Sequence record: NC_028957.1 | Reading direction: 5' to 3' (one strand) | DNA from: Escherichia phage vB_EcoM_VR26 | Length of the DNA stretch: 64,000 nucleotides | Program-made: the position numbers and the translations under genes | Notes under the pieces: model-generated | Databases searched by the model: none | What the model was told of the DNA's origin: nothing | The model's input: the letters and a program-made list of their open reading frames with translations, nothing else | Shown: positions 2,243 through 51,804 of the stretch, piece after piece | How the letters are laid out: every line of letters begins with the position of its first letter | Position numbering within the stretch: the stretch's first letter is position 1

Positions 2243-2446
2243 TCACTTTATATTACGTTTGAATAAGTCTGCAACTTCAAGAAGTTCATCCTTTGTTGCG
2301 GTGTCTGAAGCTATTTTAATACGGATTTCTTTGAAGCGTTCTTTAAACTCTTCCGCTTCTCTTATATCAAAAAACCGTTGGATAACACGGTATTCTTTAT
2401 GAACGACCTTGTCAAACAGCTCCAGATTCACTTTGAAGTTTGTCAT
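2243..2446 (-). CDS. hypothetical small protein (rIIA.1 position)
   Basis: ATG at 2444-2446 with GGAGA SD upstream; track start at 2452 is a TTG. Confidence 0.45.
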   Translation of the reverse strand: MTNFKVNLELFDKVVHKEYRVIQRFFDIREAEEFKERFKEIRIKIASDTATKDELLEVADLFKRNIK

Positions 2447-2711
2447 TTCCAATCTCCTGCAATATTTTTCTCATACTACGCATGGTAGCTTTATGTTCTT
2501 GGTCATGGTATATCAATGCAAGGAGTGCTTCAATTCGCTCCTCTGGGACCTTCTGACCATCCTTTATGCTCATGGCTGATGTTCTTACAGCCAACAAGTA
2601 ACTTCGCTTCCTGTCGCTATCTGGGAGCTCCTGTACCTTACGAAGACCAGCTTCCATAATGCATCGCGCGACATTCTGCAGATTAACTAAACTTCCGTCA
2701 GACATAATCAT
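2412..2711 (-). CDS. hypothetical protein
   Basis: 99-aa ORF; GAGGTGA SD 5 nt upstream of ATG at 2711; preceded by terminator and TGTACA promoter. Confidence 0.5.
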   Translation of the reverse strand: MIMSDGSLVNLQNVARCIMEAGLRKVQELPDSDRKRSYLLAVRTSAMSIKDGQKVPEERIEALLALIYHDQEHKATMRSMRKILQEIGNDKLQSESGAV

Positions 2712-2728
2712 ATTTTCACCTCAAGGAC

Positions 2729-2757
2729 ATCTTAACACAATTTTTGTGGCTTGTACA
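2729..2757 (-). promoter_or_regulatory. early promoter (TGTACA -35-like, 17 nt, TAAGAT -10)
   Basis: Same element pair recurs at 12359..12387. Confidence 0.45.
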
Positions 2758-2761
2758 TAAT

Positions 2762-2784
2762 AAAAAAGGACCCGAAGGTCCTTT
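2762..2784 (-). terminator. rho-independent terminator (UUCG tetraloop)
   Basis: aggacc-cgaa-ggtcct hairpin flanked by A-run on plus strand, giving a U-tract on the minus-strand transcript. Confidence 0.55.
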
Positions 2785-2981
2785 GGTTACTCAACTTTAT
2801 AGACTTGCCCATACGCGGTATAGTATTCACCATCCCAGGTCTCACACATAATGGTGACAAAGGATGCAAACAAGGGTTTAGTATCGGCCCACAGATAACC
2901 GTATTCGCCATTTGACAACGTAACCCACCACTTTTTCATGGACTTCTCCTATAAGACGGGAGAATATTCTCCCACATCTAT

Positions 2982-4820
2982 TTATAGCGTCGCATTCATC
3001 CAATCTTTACGTGGTTTTGATTCTTTACCGAAAAGCATTTCAAACAGGTCTTTCCAGTTTTCAGGTAATTGAACAACTTCGAATACCGGTTCGAGTAATA
3101 CTCGTTTGTACTCGGAATCTTCCAGAGAACCCAGCCCCTTGATATATCTGATGGTATGCTTCGGAAGTTTATCCTTAGCTTCTTCATAATCGGGAAGAGA
3201 ATAGAACCATTCTTGTTTATCTTTGAGCTGTGCAATAATAACAGGAGTTTTCACAAAGCGAATACGTCCTTCATGGAACAGCTCCGGCCAGTTACTGAAA
3301 AATGCCAATAACGATGGATAGATACTACCGACACCATCCACATCCGCATCTGTCATGATAGCGATATTTCGGTAATTCATATTCTCGGCTGGTTGTCCAA
3401 TCGTTAATCCAGTAATCGCACACACATCAAAGGCTTCTGCGTTTTTCATAACTTCAACAGCTTTCAGACCCCATGTGTTTTTGAACTTACCGCGCAACGG
3501 ATAAGCGCCTTGCAATTCACGGTCACGAACCTTGATAAACGGACCCGTTGCAGAATCCCCTTCGGTCAGGAACAAAGTCGTTTCCAGCTTGTCATTGCCC
3601 CATTCGTTGGCCTTGATATGTTTCTGTACCTTGGCCTTTGAAGCTTTCTTATTCGCCTTAGTCTCTGCTGCTTTCTCTGCAGCCAATTTACGAGCCAATG
3701 CAGCTTCAATAATGGGCATCAGAATAGCTTCTGATTTTAACAACGAACCCGCCAACTTTTTGCCATCAACCTGGATATGTGATTTAATTTCGCCAGCCGG
3801 AGAAGTCAATCGTTCCTTGGTCTGGGAATCAAATCGCATATTTTTCATATTGCGAATAAACATCAACAACGTAATACATTCTTTAACGCGTGCTTTGGTT
3901 ACTTCAATTTTATACTTGCGTTTAATTGCTGGGATTAATACATCACACATTTCATCCATAACACATTCAATATGGTGACCACCATTTTTTGTGTGGATGT
4001 TGTTGACGTAAGTCAGATGTCTAAATCCATCAGGTGACCGACCGAGTGCAATTGAGCAATTATCTTGTTCCTGGATAATGATTTCATCATCATATTGTTT
4101 AGCAAACTTTTTAAACTGACCTTGTACCTTTTTACCATTGAATTTGAATTCAATATCAGGATAAACAACAGCAAGAGTCTGCAGACGGTCAAGAGTAATA
4201 TCCAGATAAATTTTATCAAAACTGTTCATTTCAAAATGGCTAAAGTCTGGAATAAACTCAACCTTGGTGCCATTGGATTTGGTCGGTTTGGTTTTCCATG
4301 ATACATTATCGGCGTTATTTGAACAACTTACACGAAGCTCATTTTTACCGTCAGATGTGGTCCCCGTAAAAAGGATTGAAAAAATATTAGTAAGACTTGA
4401 ACCCACACCATTTTGGCCACCGGTCACACGTTCTTTGTCATCACCGAAATTCCCGCCCGCTTTGGTTTTCGTCCATGCCGCTACGGGCCCAGGTAATTCT
4501 TCACCTTCTGGTGTTACGACAACAGCTTGTGGAATACCGCGGCCATTATCTTCAACAGTAACTTTGCTATCAGTCAGAGAAATATCAACAGAAATTTTAT
4601 TTGCAAATTTGAAATTTGTACGTATGGCTTCATCGACCGAGTTGTCAATAATCTCATCAATCAGTTTTAATACACCCGCCACATAAGATACTTTAGTATA
4701 TTCACCAAATAAAAATCTTTCGTATTCTTCATATGAAACACTTCCTATGTACATTCCCGGACGTTTCAAACAATGGTCTTTATCTGAAAGCAGTTCAATT
4801 TTATTTTCAATCATAATCAA
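2982..4820 (-). CDS. 39: DNA topoisomerase II large subunit (GyrB-like ATPase + Toprim), uninterrupted 39/60 form
   Basis: 612 aa; GHKL motifs IDNSVDE and VEDNGRGIP; Toprim motif LTEGDSA; no gene-60-type interruption. Confidence 0.9.
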   Translation of the reverse strand: MIMIENKIELLSDKDHCLKRPGMYIGSVSYEEYERFLFGEYTKVSYVAGVLKLIDEIIDNSVDEAIRTNFKFANKISVDISLTDSKVTVEDNGRGIPQAVVVTPEGEELPGPVAAWTKTKAGGNFGDDKERVTGGQNGVGSSLTNIFSILFTGTTSDGKNELRVSCSNNADNVSWKTKPTKSNGTKVEFIPDFSHFEMNSFDKIYLDITLDRLQTLAVVYPDIEFKFNGKKVQGQFKKFAKQYDDEIIIQEQDNCSIALGRSPDGFRHLTYVNNIHTKNGGHHIECVMDEMCDVLIPAIKRKYKIEVTKARVKECITLLMFIRNMKNMRFDSQTKERLTSPAGEIKSHIQVDGKKLAGSLLKSEAILMPIIEAALARKLAAEKAAETKANKKASKAKVQKHIKANEWGNDKLETTLFLTEGDSATGPFIKVRDRELQGAYPLRGKFKNTWGLKAVEVMKNAEAFDVCAITGLTIGQPAENMNYRNIAIMTDADVDGVGSIYPSLLAFFSNWPELFHEGRIRFVKTPVIIAQLKDKQEWFYSLPDYEEAKDKLPKHTIRYIKGLGSLEDSEYKRVLLEPVFEVVQLPENWKDLFEMLFGKESKPRKDWMNATL

Positions 4821-15097: not shown

Positions 15098-15105
15098 TAT
15101 TTATA
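15098..15105 (-). promoter_or_regulatory. late promoter TATAAATA upstream of soc
   Basis: Plus-strand tatttata = TATAAATA on coding strand, 30 nt upstream of soc ATG; leader carries AAGGAG SD. Confidence 0.6.
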
Positions 15106-15131: not shown

Positions 15132-15818
15132 TTAAATGCCTCTAAATTCATATATTAAAAGTTTAAGTGCACTAGGGGTTGTTTCGTATTTCCCTTTAAG
15201 TGCTTTAACCACGGCAGTTGCCCCACCGGGTTTACCTAATGAAAGCCAAATCTGATAGATTTCACTTTTCAACGGTTCATGCCAATGGGCAGCGGTTCTT
15301 TGAGCTTTAGATGTGGCTTCTGATACGATTTTATTTCCACCATTTGCGTAAAACTCATTCATTGCTTCTGATTGTCTGGATTTGCGTTCAGGCCTATTTT
15401 GAGCGGTGCTTTGAGCTTCCTTCATTTTGGCTTTGGTTTTTGGTTTGTTTAAACGCAATGTTTGGGCCAACTTCATTTCGTCCGTCCATTCGTATCCTTC
15501 ACCACCCTGTCCACCGGGTAAAATATTAATACAATTTGAACCATGTTTAGAATTTAATAATGATATTATATATCTTTCATGTTCAAACATCATTTCCCGA
15601 TTCTGGTGACCTACAAACCAACGAATTTTATATTTGACCCCATATTTTTTATAGATATTCCAAAGTATTTTTCCAGAGCCAGGATATCGGTCTTTATTTG
15701 GGTCTAATACATTGGTCTCATGTTTACCACCATACCAAAAAACGCCTTTCGGCGTTTTAACTTTAATTATATAAGTTCTATAAAATTTTGCCTTAATAGC
15801 CATGGTCCTGGCGCTCAA
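15132..15818 (-). CDS. GIY-YIG homing endonuclease (SegF-like)
   Basis: 228 aa; N-terminal YIIKVKTPKGVFWYGGKH GIY-YIG-like; basic C-terminus; lies between soc and 56 where T4 has segF. Confidence 0.6.
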   Translation of the reverse strand: MSARTMAIKAKFYRTYIIKVKTPKGVFWYGGKHETNVLDPNKDRYPGSGKILWNIYKKYGVKYKIRWFVGHQNREMMFEHERYIISLLNSKHGSNCINILPGGQGGEGYEWTDEMKLAQTLRLNKPKTKAKMKEAQSTAQNRPERKSRQSEAMNEFYANGGNKIVSEATSKAQRTAAHWHEPLKSEIYQIWLSLGKPGGATAVVKALKGKYETTPSALKLLIYEFRGI

Positions 15819-16311
15819 AGTTGGCTTTATTTTTCAGATAATAAAGCTTGAATATTTCTTCTGCTGACATATTAAGACCAATAGCCATGTTGAATACAAA
15901 GTGCATAATGTCAATTAGTTCAAATTTAATTTCAAGCTGGTCTTCAGGAGACATTTCTGAAATTGGTTTAGATTGAGCTTCGGTATAACGAGCTTTCCAT
16001 TTTTTCCACACAGCAGACGCGTCTTTCTCACCTTTAGACATTTCACCGAGAGAGGTCAGAAGCTCACGGAATTCGTCATCAATACAATCTTTTTGTTCGC
16101 GCATCCAGGCAACAACATCACCCGCGGTGGACAGTTTATCTGGATGATAGCAATATTCTCGGTCATTAGCCAAACGAACCTGCAATGATTTCTGCATATC
16201 AAGCATTACTTGCAGTGGGTCTTTATCTTCGTGAATCAGAGCATTAAAATATGCTTCTTCGGCTTTGTCAACACCAGCAATCAGTTGTGAACATTCATTA
16301 AAATGTGCCAT
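15793..16311 (-). CDS. 56: dCTP pyrophosphatase (MazG-like)
   Basis: 172 aa; N-terminus MAHFNEC and overall sequence match recalled T4 gp56. Confidence 0.9.
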   Translation of the reverse strand: MAHFNECSQLIAGVDKAEEAYFNALIHEDKDPLQVMLDMQKSLQVRLANDREYCYHPDKLSTAGDVVAWMREQKDCIDDEFRELLTSLGEMSKGEKDASAVWKKWKARYTEAQSKPISEMSPEDQLEIKFELIDIMHFVFNMAIGLNMSAEEIFKLYYLKNKANFERQDHGY

Positions 16312-16393
16312 TATTTTTCCTTATCAATTCATGTTGTTTGTATGTTAATTATATCATATTGAGTTGAAGCATAAATAAAAGAAAGGAGGATGT

Positions 16394-16591
16394 ATGCTAA
16401 AACTATCTAGTCTAATTCAAGCCATTAAAGGCAGTCGTAAGCGAACGATTCTGGCCCTTTCGATACTCTGTTCAGTTCTTTTATGGAACTTCATTGTCGC
16501 CCCTATTGCATTGGCACATGGTGTTATATTACCAGTCGTCGCGCTCGAATCAGTTGTAGATGTTTCACTGGCATTAATCGGCCTTGTATAG
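16394..16591 (+). CDS. small hydrophobic membrane protein
   Basis: 65 aa; strong SD AAGGAGGA before ATG at 16394; plus strand, convergent with gene 61. Confidence 0.55.
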   Translation: MLKLSSLIQAIKGSRKRTILALSILCSVLLWNFIVAPIALAHGVILPVVALESVVDVSLALIGLV

Positions 16592-16599
16592 GTGGAACT

Positions 16600-16800
16600 A
16601 TGGGAACATTATTCTATCAGATATGGAAATTAACCAGTAAGAAAGACAAGAAGCTTATCATGGGATTTTTAGCTCTTGATATTTTCCTGTGGAACTTACT
16701 GGTTGTACCTATCGCCGCAACACAAGGGGTACACTTACCCCAGGTCACAATGGGGCATATCCATTCCATCATCGGTTACTTTACCGGAATCCCTTCCTAA
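16600..16800 (+). CDS. small hydrophobic membrane protein (paralog of 16394..16591)
   Basis: 66 aa from ATG at 16600 with AGGTGGA SD; LWNLLVVPIAATQGVHLP aligns with LWNFIVAPIALAHGVILP. Confidence 0.55.
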   Translation: MGTLFYQIWKLTSKKDKKLIMGFLALDIFLWNLLVVPIAATQGVHLPQVTMGHIHSIIGYFTGIPS

Positions 16801-17825
16801 ACTTTTGCGTACTTCGAAAGTCGCATTCTTGCCATCAACCCTTGTGCAACGTTATCAGCCATATATGATTCGATTTGTTCAGGGGTTGCCCCTTCTGATT
16901 TAACCATCTCATTTATGTCTTTTGTGTGCCACGGCGCATTATCCCAGAACATAACGGCTTCACCAGCCTCAACGAGTTTCTTCATACGTTTAATCGTATC
17001 AGGATGTCTTGGCTCGTTGTCCATTACCCATACTCTGGTTTCAGCATAAGGAACCGCTTCCAATGACAATGTGCCGCCAGTTATCGCAATGCTGTTAGGG
17101 ATAAACAAACTATCAATCGGACCTTCCATTACCCACACGCGCTTACGCTCATCAATCTTGTCTACCCCGTAGACTTTGGAAGCTTCTGGGTGAGCTTTGA
17201 TGGTGATATATTTTTGTGGTGCATCTTTGCGAAGAGCTCGTCCTTGGAAAGATTCGATTTCTTTTTTGCCGTTGAAGATAGGAATAACCAAGCGTGGTTC
17301 ATTCGTTTCATTCTTATACGTCCCAGGATTAACGGAGTTAACTAATGCAGGCCATTTGTTTGTAAACCATAGCCGGTCCCAAACACCAGCCGGAATACAC
17401 CGACTTTTTACATACTTAACTATCGGATGCGCTTCTGGTAAAGTATCGAGTCTTTCACAAAAAGCAAGCTGCTCGATAACCGGAGTTTTTTCTGGTTCTT
17501 TCGGAGTTTCGGTGACTTCATTGCGTTGTCGACCAAAGGCATTCTCCTTGTACTTCTCGACCATATATTCCCGGTGTAAATCTGGCTCAAACTCTTTTAT
17601 GTATTTGCTTATATGCGTGGAGTAGTCACAGTTAAAACACTTCACATAAACCGCACCATCTGCTGGATTGGTATACGCCCAGAATCGAGCCTTATGTGAA
17701 TCCTTCTGGGAGTCGCCACAAACTTTACATCTGCAGTTTGCCTTAAATGTGCTCCCGGTGACTTCTCTATAACGTGGTTGATACGATAAAGCTCTGACCG
17801 CAAATTCTTTATCAATATATGACAT
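16797..17825 (-). CDS. 61: DNA primase
   Basis: 342 aa; N-terminal zinc ribbon CRCKVCGD...CFNCDY; size matches T4 gp61. Confidence 0.9.
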   Translation of the reverse strand: MSYIDKEFAVRALSYQPRYREVTGSTFKANCRCKVCGDSQKDSHKARFWAYTNPADGAVYVKCFNCDYSTHISKYIKEFEPDLHREYMVEKYKENAFGRQRNEVTETPKEPEKTPVIEQLAFCERLDTLPEAHPIVKYVKSRCIPAGVWDRLWFTNKWPALVNSVNPGTYKNETNEPRLVIPIFNGKKEIESFQGRALRKDAPQKYITIKAHPEASKVYGVDKIDERKRVWVMEGPIDSLFIPNSIAITGGTLSLEAVPYAETRVWVMDNEPRHPDTIKRMKKLVEAGEAVMFWDNAPWHTKDINEMVKSEGATPEQIESYMADNVAQGLMARMRLSKYAKV

Positions 17826-18044
17826 AGTTTCCTCATTTCAATGGTCCCAGAGGACCATTATACTGTAGGTTTATCGTCTTTGTTCTTACGCTTTTTTGAT
17901 GGGATTTGTTCAGGACCTTTATTGACAACTGTCCCGGAAGTGGTACCTGTTGCGATATTAGTTGGGTTTCCGCCAGCGTCACCAGCAACCATATCTTCGT
18001 TGATAAAATCTTTGAATGTTTTCATAACACCCCCTTTCCGCTAT

Positions 18045-18236
18045 TTATACAACGAAGATGGCTTTATCACCATTTGCATCAGTCACTTCATAAGTGTCTT
18101 CATGATACAACGGAATAATCCAGGTAACACCATCATCAGCAATAACATGGATTGCTTCTTGGTCTTGCGACACGATTTCATATTCTTCAAAAATCTCGAA
18201 TACGGAAATCTTAGAGCCCGTACACATTGCACTCAT
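18045..18236 (-). CDS. hypothetical small protein
   Basis: 63-aa ORF. Confidence 0.4.
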   Translation of the reverse strand: MSAMCTGSKISVFEIFEEYEIVSQDQEAIHVIADDGVTWIIPLYHEDTYEVTDANGDKAIFVV

Positions 18237-51502: not shown

Positions 51503-51528
51503 AGCGGAATACTAGTTAGTATCTGTAT

Positions 51529-51804
51529 TTATAATCTTTTAAACTTGAAACAATATATTGCAAATAAATCAGAAAAATGTCTATCAACCCATATTCTTTG
51601 CACTGGACTAGTAACAGTCAGCATATAATGTGCTTTTTGTAAATTTATTCCATTTTTATTCGGGCATTCTTTATTAACAGAATGGTACGTGCTTGCTACT
51701 ATTTCAATTTCCCTTTCATATCTCTCGCTATCTGTTTGCGTGGGGATAAATGCAATTCCAGCAATAACAAAAATAGAGATATAAGTCCAAATCTTATATA
51801 TCAT
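51529..51804 (-). CDS. small membrane protein
   Basis: 91 aa with N-terminal hydrophobic segment. Confidence 0.4.
   Translation of the reverse strand: MIYKIWTYISIFVIAGIAFIPTQTDSERYEREIEIVASTYHSVNKECPNKNGINLQKAHYMLTVTSPVQRIWVDRHFSDLFAIYCFKFKRL

Follow-up and report, generated by a model that had tools for sequence, protein, structure and literature searches.

The window analysed here, a stretch of 64 kb from Escherichia phage vB_EcoM_VR26 (sequence record NC_028957.1; genus Gaprivervirus, Tevenvirinae), is coded mostly on the minus strand, as an earlier note on this DNA had remarked: open reading frames (ORFs) of at least 100 amino acids that start with ATG number 67 on this strand versus 13 on the plus strand, and the majority of these 13 overlap minus-strand ORFs of at least 50 amino acids. 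Between genes 56 and 61, two small ORFs of 65 and 66 amino acids, named here ORF1 and ORF2, are read from the plus strand, and the locus raises the question of whether they are genes, when they are expressed and what their products do. The earlier note had placed them inside an early operon, and had seen in them possible toxins, holin/antiholin-like proteins or exclusion factors. The account that we propose is a two-gene late transcription unit of small membrane proteins with a role at the cell envelope, which as a whole, envelope role included, we consider rather probable, its parts being of different strength as discussed below.

Two small genes behind a putative late promoter

That ORF1 and ORF2 are real, conserved protein-coding genes can be taken as nearly certain. 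Their coordinates between genes 56 and 61 were confirmed, and the strong Shine-Dalgarno sequences claimed for them, AAGGAGGA and AGGTGGA, are both present with their cores 4 nt before the ATG; the GGAGG core is also kept at most homologous loci. The two proteins match the phrog_2024 profile over their full length, with E values of 6.9e-27 for ORF1 (residues 1-65 of 65) and 3.1e-27 for ORF2 (residues 1-64 of 65). This family was taken from PHROGs v4, where it is listed with unknown function, and includes RB69ORF029w, VR7ORF033w, VR25 gp031/gp032 and VR26 gp031/gp032. Its members are like the window ORFs in length, in their position between genes 56 and 61 and in their convergence with the primase gene, and do not differ from them in kind. 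The existence of the gene pair is not new, as hypothetical proteins are already annotated in VR25 and VR26 and the family is already a PHROG. A longer version of ORF2, of 105 amino acids and starting with the ATG at 16483, was considered and rejected: this upstream start is not conserved and is missing in P479, MN01 and UPEC01, so that the start giving 66 amino acids is taken as the correct one.

The timing of expression is suggested by the region upstream of ORF1. In T4, the late promoter consists of an 8-bp TATAAATA box at -13 to -6; among 50 T4 late sites, 32 are perfect and most of the others show one deviation, usually at -13, a position that is poorly conserved across T4-like phages, and late genes are typically transcribed clockwise (PMC2988020, PMC1524935). 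The promoter-like plus-strand element CATAAATA reported by the earlier note at 16370-16377 is indeed present, and can be given a sharper identity, that of a gp55-type late promoter motif with one deviation from the box. It is the sole plus-strand NATAAATA in the 64 kb, a pattern which is depleted around three-fold in the window, with 7 copies seen versus about 22.6 expected (4 TATAAATA and 3 VATAAATA, versus 5.2 and 17.5 expected). Conservation points in the same direction: of the 13 homologous loci, drawn from at least 11 genera and with unalignable flanks, 11 carry an exact ATAAATA 13-22 nt before the start codon, an arrangement with a chance of about 0.008 per locus. In the remaining two, those of CGG4-1 and Moon, TATTAAATA is found in place of the exact ATAAATA.

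The plus strand of the 82-nt spacer that separates gene 56 from ORF1 showed no sigma-70-like site, and no promoter motif was found between ORF1 and ORF2. Because the two ORFs are only 8 nt apart, without an intervening motif, they are probably co-transcribed, and we infer a late gene pair that starts near 16383. Late transcription in T4 requires gp55, gp33 and gp45 and sets in once DNA replication has begun. In the proposed sequence of events, RNA polymerase bearing gp55 would initiate from the CATAAATA motif, around 11 nt ahead of the ORF1 start codon, and would transcribe ORF1 and then ORF2 clockwise, in the usual orientation of T4 late genes. As no conserved terminator was found, the transcript would run on into the final part of the primase gene, antisense to it. 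A weak hairpin inside gene 61 (16881-16893) was examined as a conserved terminator of the late unit and rejected, since it is missing in T4, HMD-9 and JS10, and for the same lack of conservation it probably arises incidentally from the codons for EGATPEQ in gene 61. Another terminator-like hairpin, on the minus strand and inside ORF2 (16726-16741), falls on the codons for the conserved QGVHLP motif.

The minus strand of the same spacer carries a candidate MotA-type middle promoter for gene 56. The stretch from 16374 to 16348 fits the MotA-box architecture of T4 middle promoters and is correctly placed for this gene, and EAWsc9 and the T4-like phage HMD-9 share this arrangement. The MotA-type and late motifs overlap by 5 bp on opposite strands (16370-16374), and the presence of C instead of T at position -13 of the late box is explained by the G of the MotA-box TGCTT, which pairs with it. 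Judged by its motifs, the 82-nt spacer is a back-to-back pair of putative promoters, a middle one for gene 56 and a late one for the small ORFs, which accounts for the promoter-like elements that had been noticed in it. Its consequence for the early-operon placement is unfavourable: as the spacer holds a middle-type promoter for gene 56, the pair would sit between two early/middle transcription units, with a late-type motif of its own.

The coordinates of these features and of their neighbours are collected in Table 1. The flanking genes were identified as 56 and 58=61 by the annotation of vB_EcoM_VR7, which is 97% identical over 15800-17900. ORF2 ends 4 nt inside gene 61, as had been stated, with 16797-16800 in common, and the same 4-nt stop-codon overlap with the primase gene is found in T4, RB69, Marfa, Moon and locus L015.

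Table 1. Features of the locus and related motifs in the window; clades A and B are described in the text.
Feature	Position	Strand	Description
ORF1	16394-16591	+	65 amino acids; clade-A (T4/RB69-type) member of phrog_2024; VR26 gp031 (100% identity)
ORF2	16600-16800	+	66 amino acids; clade-B (Dhakavirus/Marfavirus-type) member of phrog_2024; VR26 gp032 (100% identity)
T4-type late promoter motif (putative)	16370-16377	+	CATAAATA; 7/8 match to TATAAATA, C at -13; predicted start ~16383
Candidate MotA-type middle promoter for gene 56	16348-16374	-	MotA box TTATGCTTCA at 16374-16365, 11-nt spacer, -10 TATAAT at 16353-16348
Shine-Dalgarno of ORF1	16383-16390	+	AAGGAGGA; GGAGG core 4 nt before ATG
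Shine-Dalgarno of ORF2	16590-16596	+	AGGTGGA; GGTGG core 4 nt before ATG; overlaps the ORF1 stop codon
Gene 56 (dCTPase)	15793-16311	-	Divergent neighbour
Gene 61 (DNA primase)	16797-17825	-	Convergent neighbour; stop codon overlaps the ORF2 stop codon
Weak terminator-like hairpin	16881-16893	+	AGGGGTTGCCCCT plus TCTGATTT; inside gene 61, antisense
Terminator-like hairpin	16726-16741	-	GGGGTAAGTGTACCCC; inside ORF2, 56-71 nt downstream of the gene 61 stop codon
segF-like GIY-YIG gene	15132-15818	-	Beside gene 56
TATAAATA copy	2979-2986	-	
TATAAATA copy	15098-15105	-	30 nt upstream of the soc start codon
TATAAATA copy	18042-18049	-	16 nt upstream of a 61.1-like ORF (17858-18025)
TATAAATA copy	51526-51533	-	

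Predicted membrane topology and distribution of the family

The description of both products as hydrophobic proteins agrees with transmembrane (TM) prediction, which gives one favourable segment at around residues 18-40 in all 19 family members examined. In each of the 19, lysine and arginine residues number 3-7 on the N-terminal side of this segment and 0-2 on its C-terminal side, so that by the positive-inside rule the proteins are predicted to be N-in/C-out. A second hydrophobic stretch is unfavourable for insertion (ΔG of +5 to +13). The AlphaFold2 model, obtained with 27 sequences and with a predicted local distance difference test (pLDDT) value of 70, places a short helix at the N-terminus, followed by a long one at 14-41, a loop over 42-50 and a last helix at 51-62. 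Both ORFs are predicted to encode single-pass N-in/C-out membrane proteins, with a basic cytoplasmic N-terminus, a TM helix and a periplasmic tail of around 25 residues, which would consist of a short loop (…LP…) followed by a short helix that opens with an acidic residue kept in most members. The basic residues are clustered at the N-terminus, and the C-terminal 24-36 residues have only 0-2 lysine or arginine and 0-3 aspartate or glutamate residues. The late promoter and the membrane location are, taken together, the part of the functional account that we hold with good confidence.

Conservation is centred on the membrane helix. Residues W31, N32, P37, A39 and L46 are invariant and P47 nearly so; the TM helix contains the invariant motif W-N-x4-P-x-A, usually followed by x3-G, and most members also have G43 and, at position 52, an acidic residue. 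A membrane-embedded asparagine together with an A-x3-G motif of the small-xxx-small type suggests helix-helix packing. The sequence pattern suggests that the products, inserted in the inner membrane, would act by packing against their own or a partner's membrane helix rather than as enzymes.

With respect to distribution, tblastn found ORF1-like genes in 706 phage records, corresponding to Tequatrovirus and Mosigvirus (around 50% identity; RB69ORF029w is the Mosigvirus member) in addition to Gaprivervirus, and ORF2-like genes in 110 phage records, including those of Dhakavirus, Marfavirus, Kanagawavirus, Mosugukvirus and Gelderlandvirus. Remoter members of the family were found in Moonvirus, Jiaodavirus and others, in such a way that homologues of about 65 amino acids persist in at least 11 genera at 23-50% identity. 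The position convergent with the primase gene was found in Tequatrovirus, Mosigvirus, Dhakavirus, Gaprivervirus, Jiaodavirus, Marfavirus, Kanagawavirus, Moonvirus, Mosugukvirus and Gelderlandvirus, and at every locus inspected (among them the window, T4, RB69, JS10, Marfa, Q7622, PM2, CGG4-1, Moon, PKO111 and L015) the gene is on the plus strand and converges with gene 61.

An exhaustive HMMER search of 1.84 billion representative proteins gave 14 clusters of the family, at least one of them spurious, and a word-indexed profile search gave 83 family proteins; all of these that have a source name come from phage records, mostly under the name 'hypothetical', and many of the 83 are on contigs of around 170 kb, with most of the others on short contigs. 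Five more loci were gained through single-protein scans of IMG/VR. Given that only 14 clusters appeared among 1.84 billion proteins and that the named members are all from phages, the family is, as far as these searches reach, confined to T-even-like phages of Enterobacterales. The cluster recognised as spurious is that of P0039, a repetitive protein of 449 amino acids, which has six stretches that match the profile (…RKRQILLLSCLVYVLLW…), and looks like a low-complexity or repeat artefact and not like a relative.

Searches for relatives of known function gave little. The ORF1 and ORF2 proteins had no match in Pfam or NCBIfam at E values up to 10, and a Pfam scan of the 19 members at E up to 5 had as its best result GTA_holin_3TM, with E 0.08 and in 2 of the 19. 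Sequence searches of Pfam, NCBIfam and the PDB, run both with individual proteins and with the alignment of the family, produced no meaningful match, and the comparison of the AlphaFold2 model with BFVD gave family members and noise only. The top BFVD match bears the name 'holin', which is a depositor's label on a homologue and was rejected as independent evidence. When all six-frame ORFs of the window were scanned with a hidden Markov model (HMM) of the family, no further paralogues were found apart from ORF1 and ORF2. Regarding product names, those given to family members in UPEC01, SAKp28, YenP8, CGG4-1, SEA1, BW-1, EAWsc9 and OE5505 are unsupported or plainly wrong, and the unsupported ones in the family include 'DNA packaging ATPase', 'dCTP pyrophosphatase', 'putative head morphogenesis protein' and 'holin' or 'holin family protein'.

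The family includes a homologue in T4 itself. It has 66 codons, is located on the plus strand between dam and gene 61 (17738-17938 of T4; 3239-3439 of locus L005), and carries the Shine-Dalgarno sequence AAGGAGGA, an upstream GATAAATA and the 4-nt stop-codon overlap with gene 61. T4 is among the most thoroughly annotated viruses, yet the 310 bp between dam and gene 61 are blank in its reference records: neither AF158101 nor NC_000866 has any annotation in 17626-17934. A protein identical to the T4 homologue is annotated as hypothetical in phage ECO4 and in other Tequatroviruses, and the gene is kept at the same position in hundreds of T-even genomes.

Paralogue history and decay of ORF2

The two proteins are paralogues, as had been claimed. 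BLASTP aligns them with an E value of 4e-8 and 38% identity over 42 residues, and the identity over the full alignment is 23%. A recent tandem duplication was rejected as their origin, as the copies are not each other's closest relatives and belong to separate clades. In the family tree, ORF1 goes with the T4/RB69 type (49% identity to the T4 protein) and ORF2 with the type of JS10, Marfa and Klebsiella phages (73-77% identity to the JS10 and Marfa proteins), so that by their sequences ORF1 and ORF2 are anciently diverged versions of one protein. The family has at least two old clades, A and B, that are found together only in Gaprivervirus. The pair could have arisen in either of two ways, from an ancestral A-B pair that was differentially lost elsewhere, or by the gain of one of the types through recombination.

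The fate of the two genes within Gaprivervirus is different. ORF1 is intact in all 11 Gapriverviruses with an alignable interval, with a ratio of non-synonymous to synonymous polymorphism (pN/pS) of 0.37. ORF2 is intact in 6 of the 11, with a pN/pS of 0.09 and 16 of its 22 variable sites at third codon positions, and it is broken or invaded by a homing endonuclease in about half of the genus, through at least four independent lesions. VR20, EAWsc9 and TH22 have in common a 2-nt deletion, to which EAWsc9 and TH22 add another of 86 nt; in SP18 and its relatives, a 97-nt deletion takes out the Shine-Dalgarno sequence and 27 codons; and in DK-13, RZ and YenP8 a homing-endonuclease gene lies between the ORF2 remnant and gene 61. 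In VR7, a 1-nt insertion (an extra T after GG, at around position 16776 of the window) alters the last 7 codons, and only ORF033w of the pair is annotated; this insertion could be an error of sequencing and not a true frameshift. The earlier note had named the loss of the reading frames in close relatives as an argument against its own proposal, and such loss is found for ORF2, and neither for ORF1 nor for the family as a whole.

At least one member of the family is kept in every phage and every genus examined. As ORF1 is never lost, one member is always present and ORF2 is repeatedly broken, the simplest reading, which we infer from this pattern, is that ORF1 and ORF2 are functionally overlapping and largely redundant versions of the protein. 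That one copy is always kept and the other repeatedly lost hints at gene exchange or replacement at a locus with homing-endonuclease traffic, and endonuclease-driven co-conversion could have brought the second type of small ORF into Gaprivervirus.

The interval between genes 56 and 61 is in general a hot spot for insertions. Besides the segF-like GIY-YIG gene that lies beside gene 56 in the window, insertions are located at 2260-3009 of locus L004, at 1568-2335 of locus L024 and, in T4, at dam, and extra ORFs of the pyrophosphohydrolase type are present at this locus in Marfa, Q7622 and Moon.

Possible roles and comparison with known systems

Small inner-membrane proteins that are late and found only in phages usually have the envelope as their site of action towards the end of infection. 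For this reason we suggest, tentatively, that the role of the pair is to modulate inner-membrane or envelope events at the end of the infection, be it the timing of holin-T-dependent lysis, lysis inhibition or membrane integrity while virions accumulate. A bolder version, which we consider rather unlikely, is that the overlooked late membrane gene, carried by T4 and all its enterobacterial relatives, encodes a missing component of a classic late process, such as a partner of T, RI and RIII in lysis inhibition or a late inhibitor of a host membrane defence. Gaprivervirus would then keep both ancient allelic forms together and offer a natural experiment on redundancy and replacement.

Several points speak against our account. 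Regarding the role, lysis or the envelope is deduced from the class of protein (late, small, membrane); none of e, t, rI and rIII lies close to the genes; no similarity to lysis protein families was found in Pfam, NCBIfam, the PDB or the HMM searches of the window; and no paper on the gene was found in the literature. Regarding the promoter, two genera have only a variant of the motif with a one-base insertion, the base at -13 is not the consensus one (C in the window, G in T4), and the predicted leader is short, of around 11 nt, with the Shine-Dalgarno sequence at its extreme 5' end. Finally, the loss of ORF2 could reflect lineage-specific dispensability instead of redundancy.

Other roles were also weighed. 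For the holin/antiholin, exclusion-factor and toxin ideas of the earlier note no homology link was found, and several of the features that define holins and antiholins are absent. An improbable alternative, although among the better ones, is a late function in envelope protection or phage exclusion, by which the proteins would act through a membrane component to block the entry of DNA from a secondary phage or lysis from without, or to protect the loaded cell or the progeny. A small inner-membrane protein with a short periplasmic tail has the general architecture of exclusion proteins, and the family is limited to phages of Enterobacterales, which share receptors and envelopes. However, the promoter is of the late type and no early-type site was found, and no similarity was detected to other ORFs of the window, including the region of the sp and imm homologues. 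The imm and sp genes of T4 are early and lie on the counter-clockwise strand, and the late promoter argues against a classical early role of the Imm/Sp type.

We give a similarly low probability to a late counter-defence, in which the proteins would bind and neutralise an abortive-infection effector of the host inner membrane that is set off by products of the late phase, for instance capsid proteins or accumulated DNA. The family is phage-only; within Gaprivervirus, ORF1 evolves faster than the intact ORF2, as seen in the pN/pS values above; and two diverged versions stand side by side at a hot spot of gene turnover, as could be expected for an arms-race gene. Against this, no defence partner is known, and a gene that is near-universal and strictly syntenic in at least 10 genera, with an invariant core, fits better with a housekeeping accessory role.

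An auxiliary holin or pinholin, building up in the inner membrane late in infection and producing lethal lesions or depolarisation beside holin T, seems quite unlikely. The proteins are small, with a late motif and a single TM helix in the N-in/C-out orientation of the class III holin T, and the members in EAWsc9 and OE5505 carry the depositors' label 'holin'. These labels are, however, unsupported annotations, and the best approach to a holin family in Pfam or NCBIfam is the marginal GTA_holin_3TM hit cited above. In addition, the C-terminus is neither charged nor hydrophilic, the charges being N-terminal; the tail of clade B is too polar for a second TM segment; and no endolysin gene or lysis cassette adjoins the genes, which are flanked by the dCTPase and primase genes in every genome examined. 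Besides, these phages already have holin T.

A helper of morphogenesis, anchoring or organising assembly at the membrane, for instance of the portal or in prohead initiation at the inner membrane, we regard as doubtful in the extreme. Late timing, the predicted inner-membrane site and a conservation that tracks the morphogenetic machinery across T-even genera would fit with it, as would the label 'putative head morphogenesis protein' on the BW-1 member; but this label has no stated basis, the cytoplasmic part has only around 17 residues, and the family was not detected in remoter T4-like phages that have the same head assembly pathway. The classical amber and temperature-sensitive screens are not known to have found such a morphogenesis gene.

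Lastly, it is hardly credible that the ORFs are incidental and that the function lies in a late RNA antisense to gene 61 or to an early read-through transcript, or in an oriA-like origin or promoter spacer: the late transcript would indeed lack a conserved terminator and run antisense into gene 61, and T4 oriA maps to the adjoining gene 56 transcript, but selection is purifying at the protein level, homologues at 23-50% identity, whose DNA no longer aligns, still have the ORF length and the invariant residues, and the strong Shine-Dalgarno sites have persisted. Gene 61 could still be affected by the antisense RNA, as a side effect.

Returning to the late membrane-protein pair, four elements of this account appear to be unreported: the assignment of a late promoter, the overlap of middle and late promoters, the A and B clades with the ongoing decay of ORF2, and the annotation gap in T4. 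For knockout and interaction studies in T4, a membrane micro-protein that is conserved, presumably late and exclusive to phages offers an inexpensive, well-defined object, and even if its function were trivial, the annotation of T4 would be corrected and several wrong product names could be removed from public records.

In comparison with known systems, the window proteins resemble T4 holin T in probably coming from a late gene and in having one TM helix and an N-in/C-out orientation. Whereas holin T has 218 amino acids and a large periplasmic domain that binds RI, they have only 65-66 and a tail of about 25 residues. A likeness also exists to RI and RIII of T4, which are small accessory proteins that tune lysis from the membrane, the periplasm or the cytoplasm, rI being also transcribed late. 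However, RI combines a releasable signal-anchor with a globular periplasmic domain, and RIII resides in the cytoplasm; neither architecture is found in the window proteins; in the place of an RI-type release domain they have a basic N-terminus, a stable TM helix and the short periplasmic tail. With Imm and Sp of T4 they share being small phage envelope proteins, and differ from them in the late-type promoter, the clockwise strand and the lack of sequence similarity. Another analogy is with MgrB and AcrZ. These are small membrane-protein regulators of bacteria and have no homology with the window family, which is confined to phages, but they are likewise single-pass proteins of around 50-70 amino acids with conserved residues inside the TM helix, suggesting packing with a partner.

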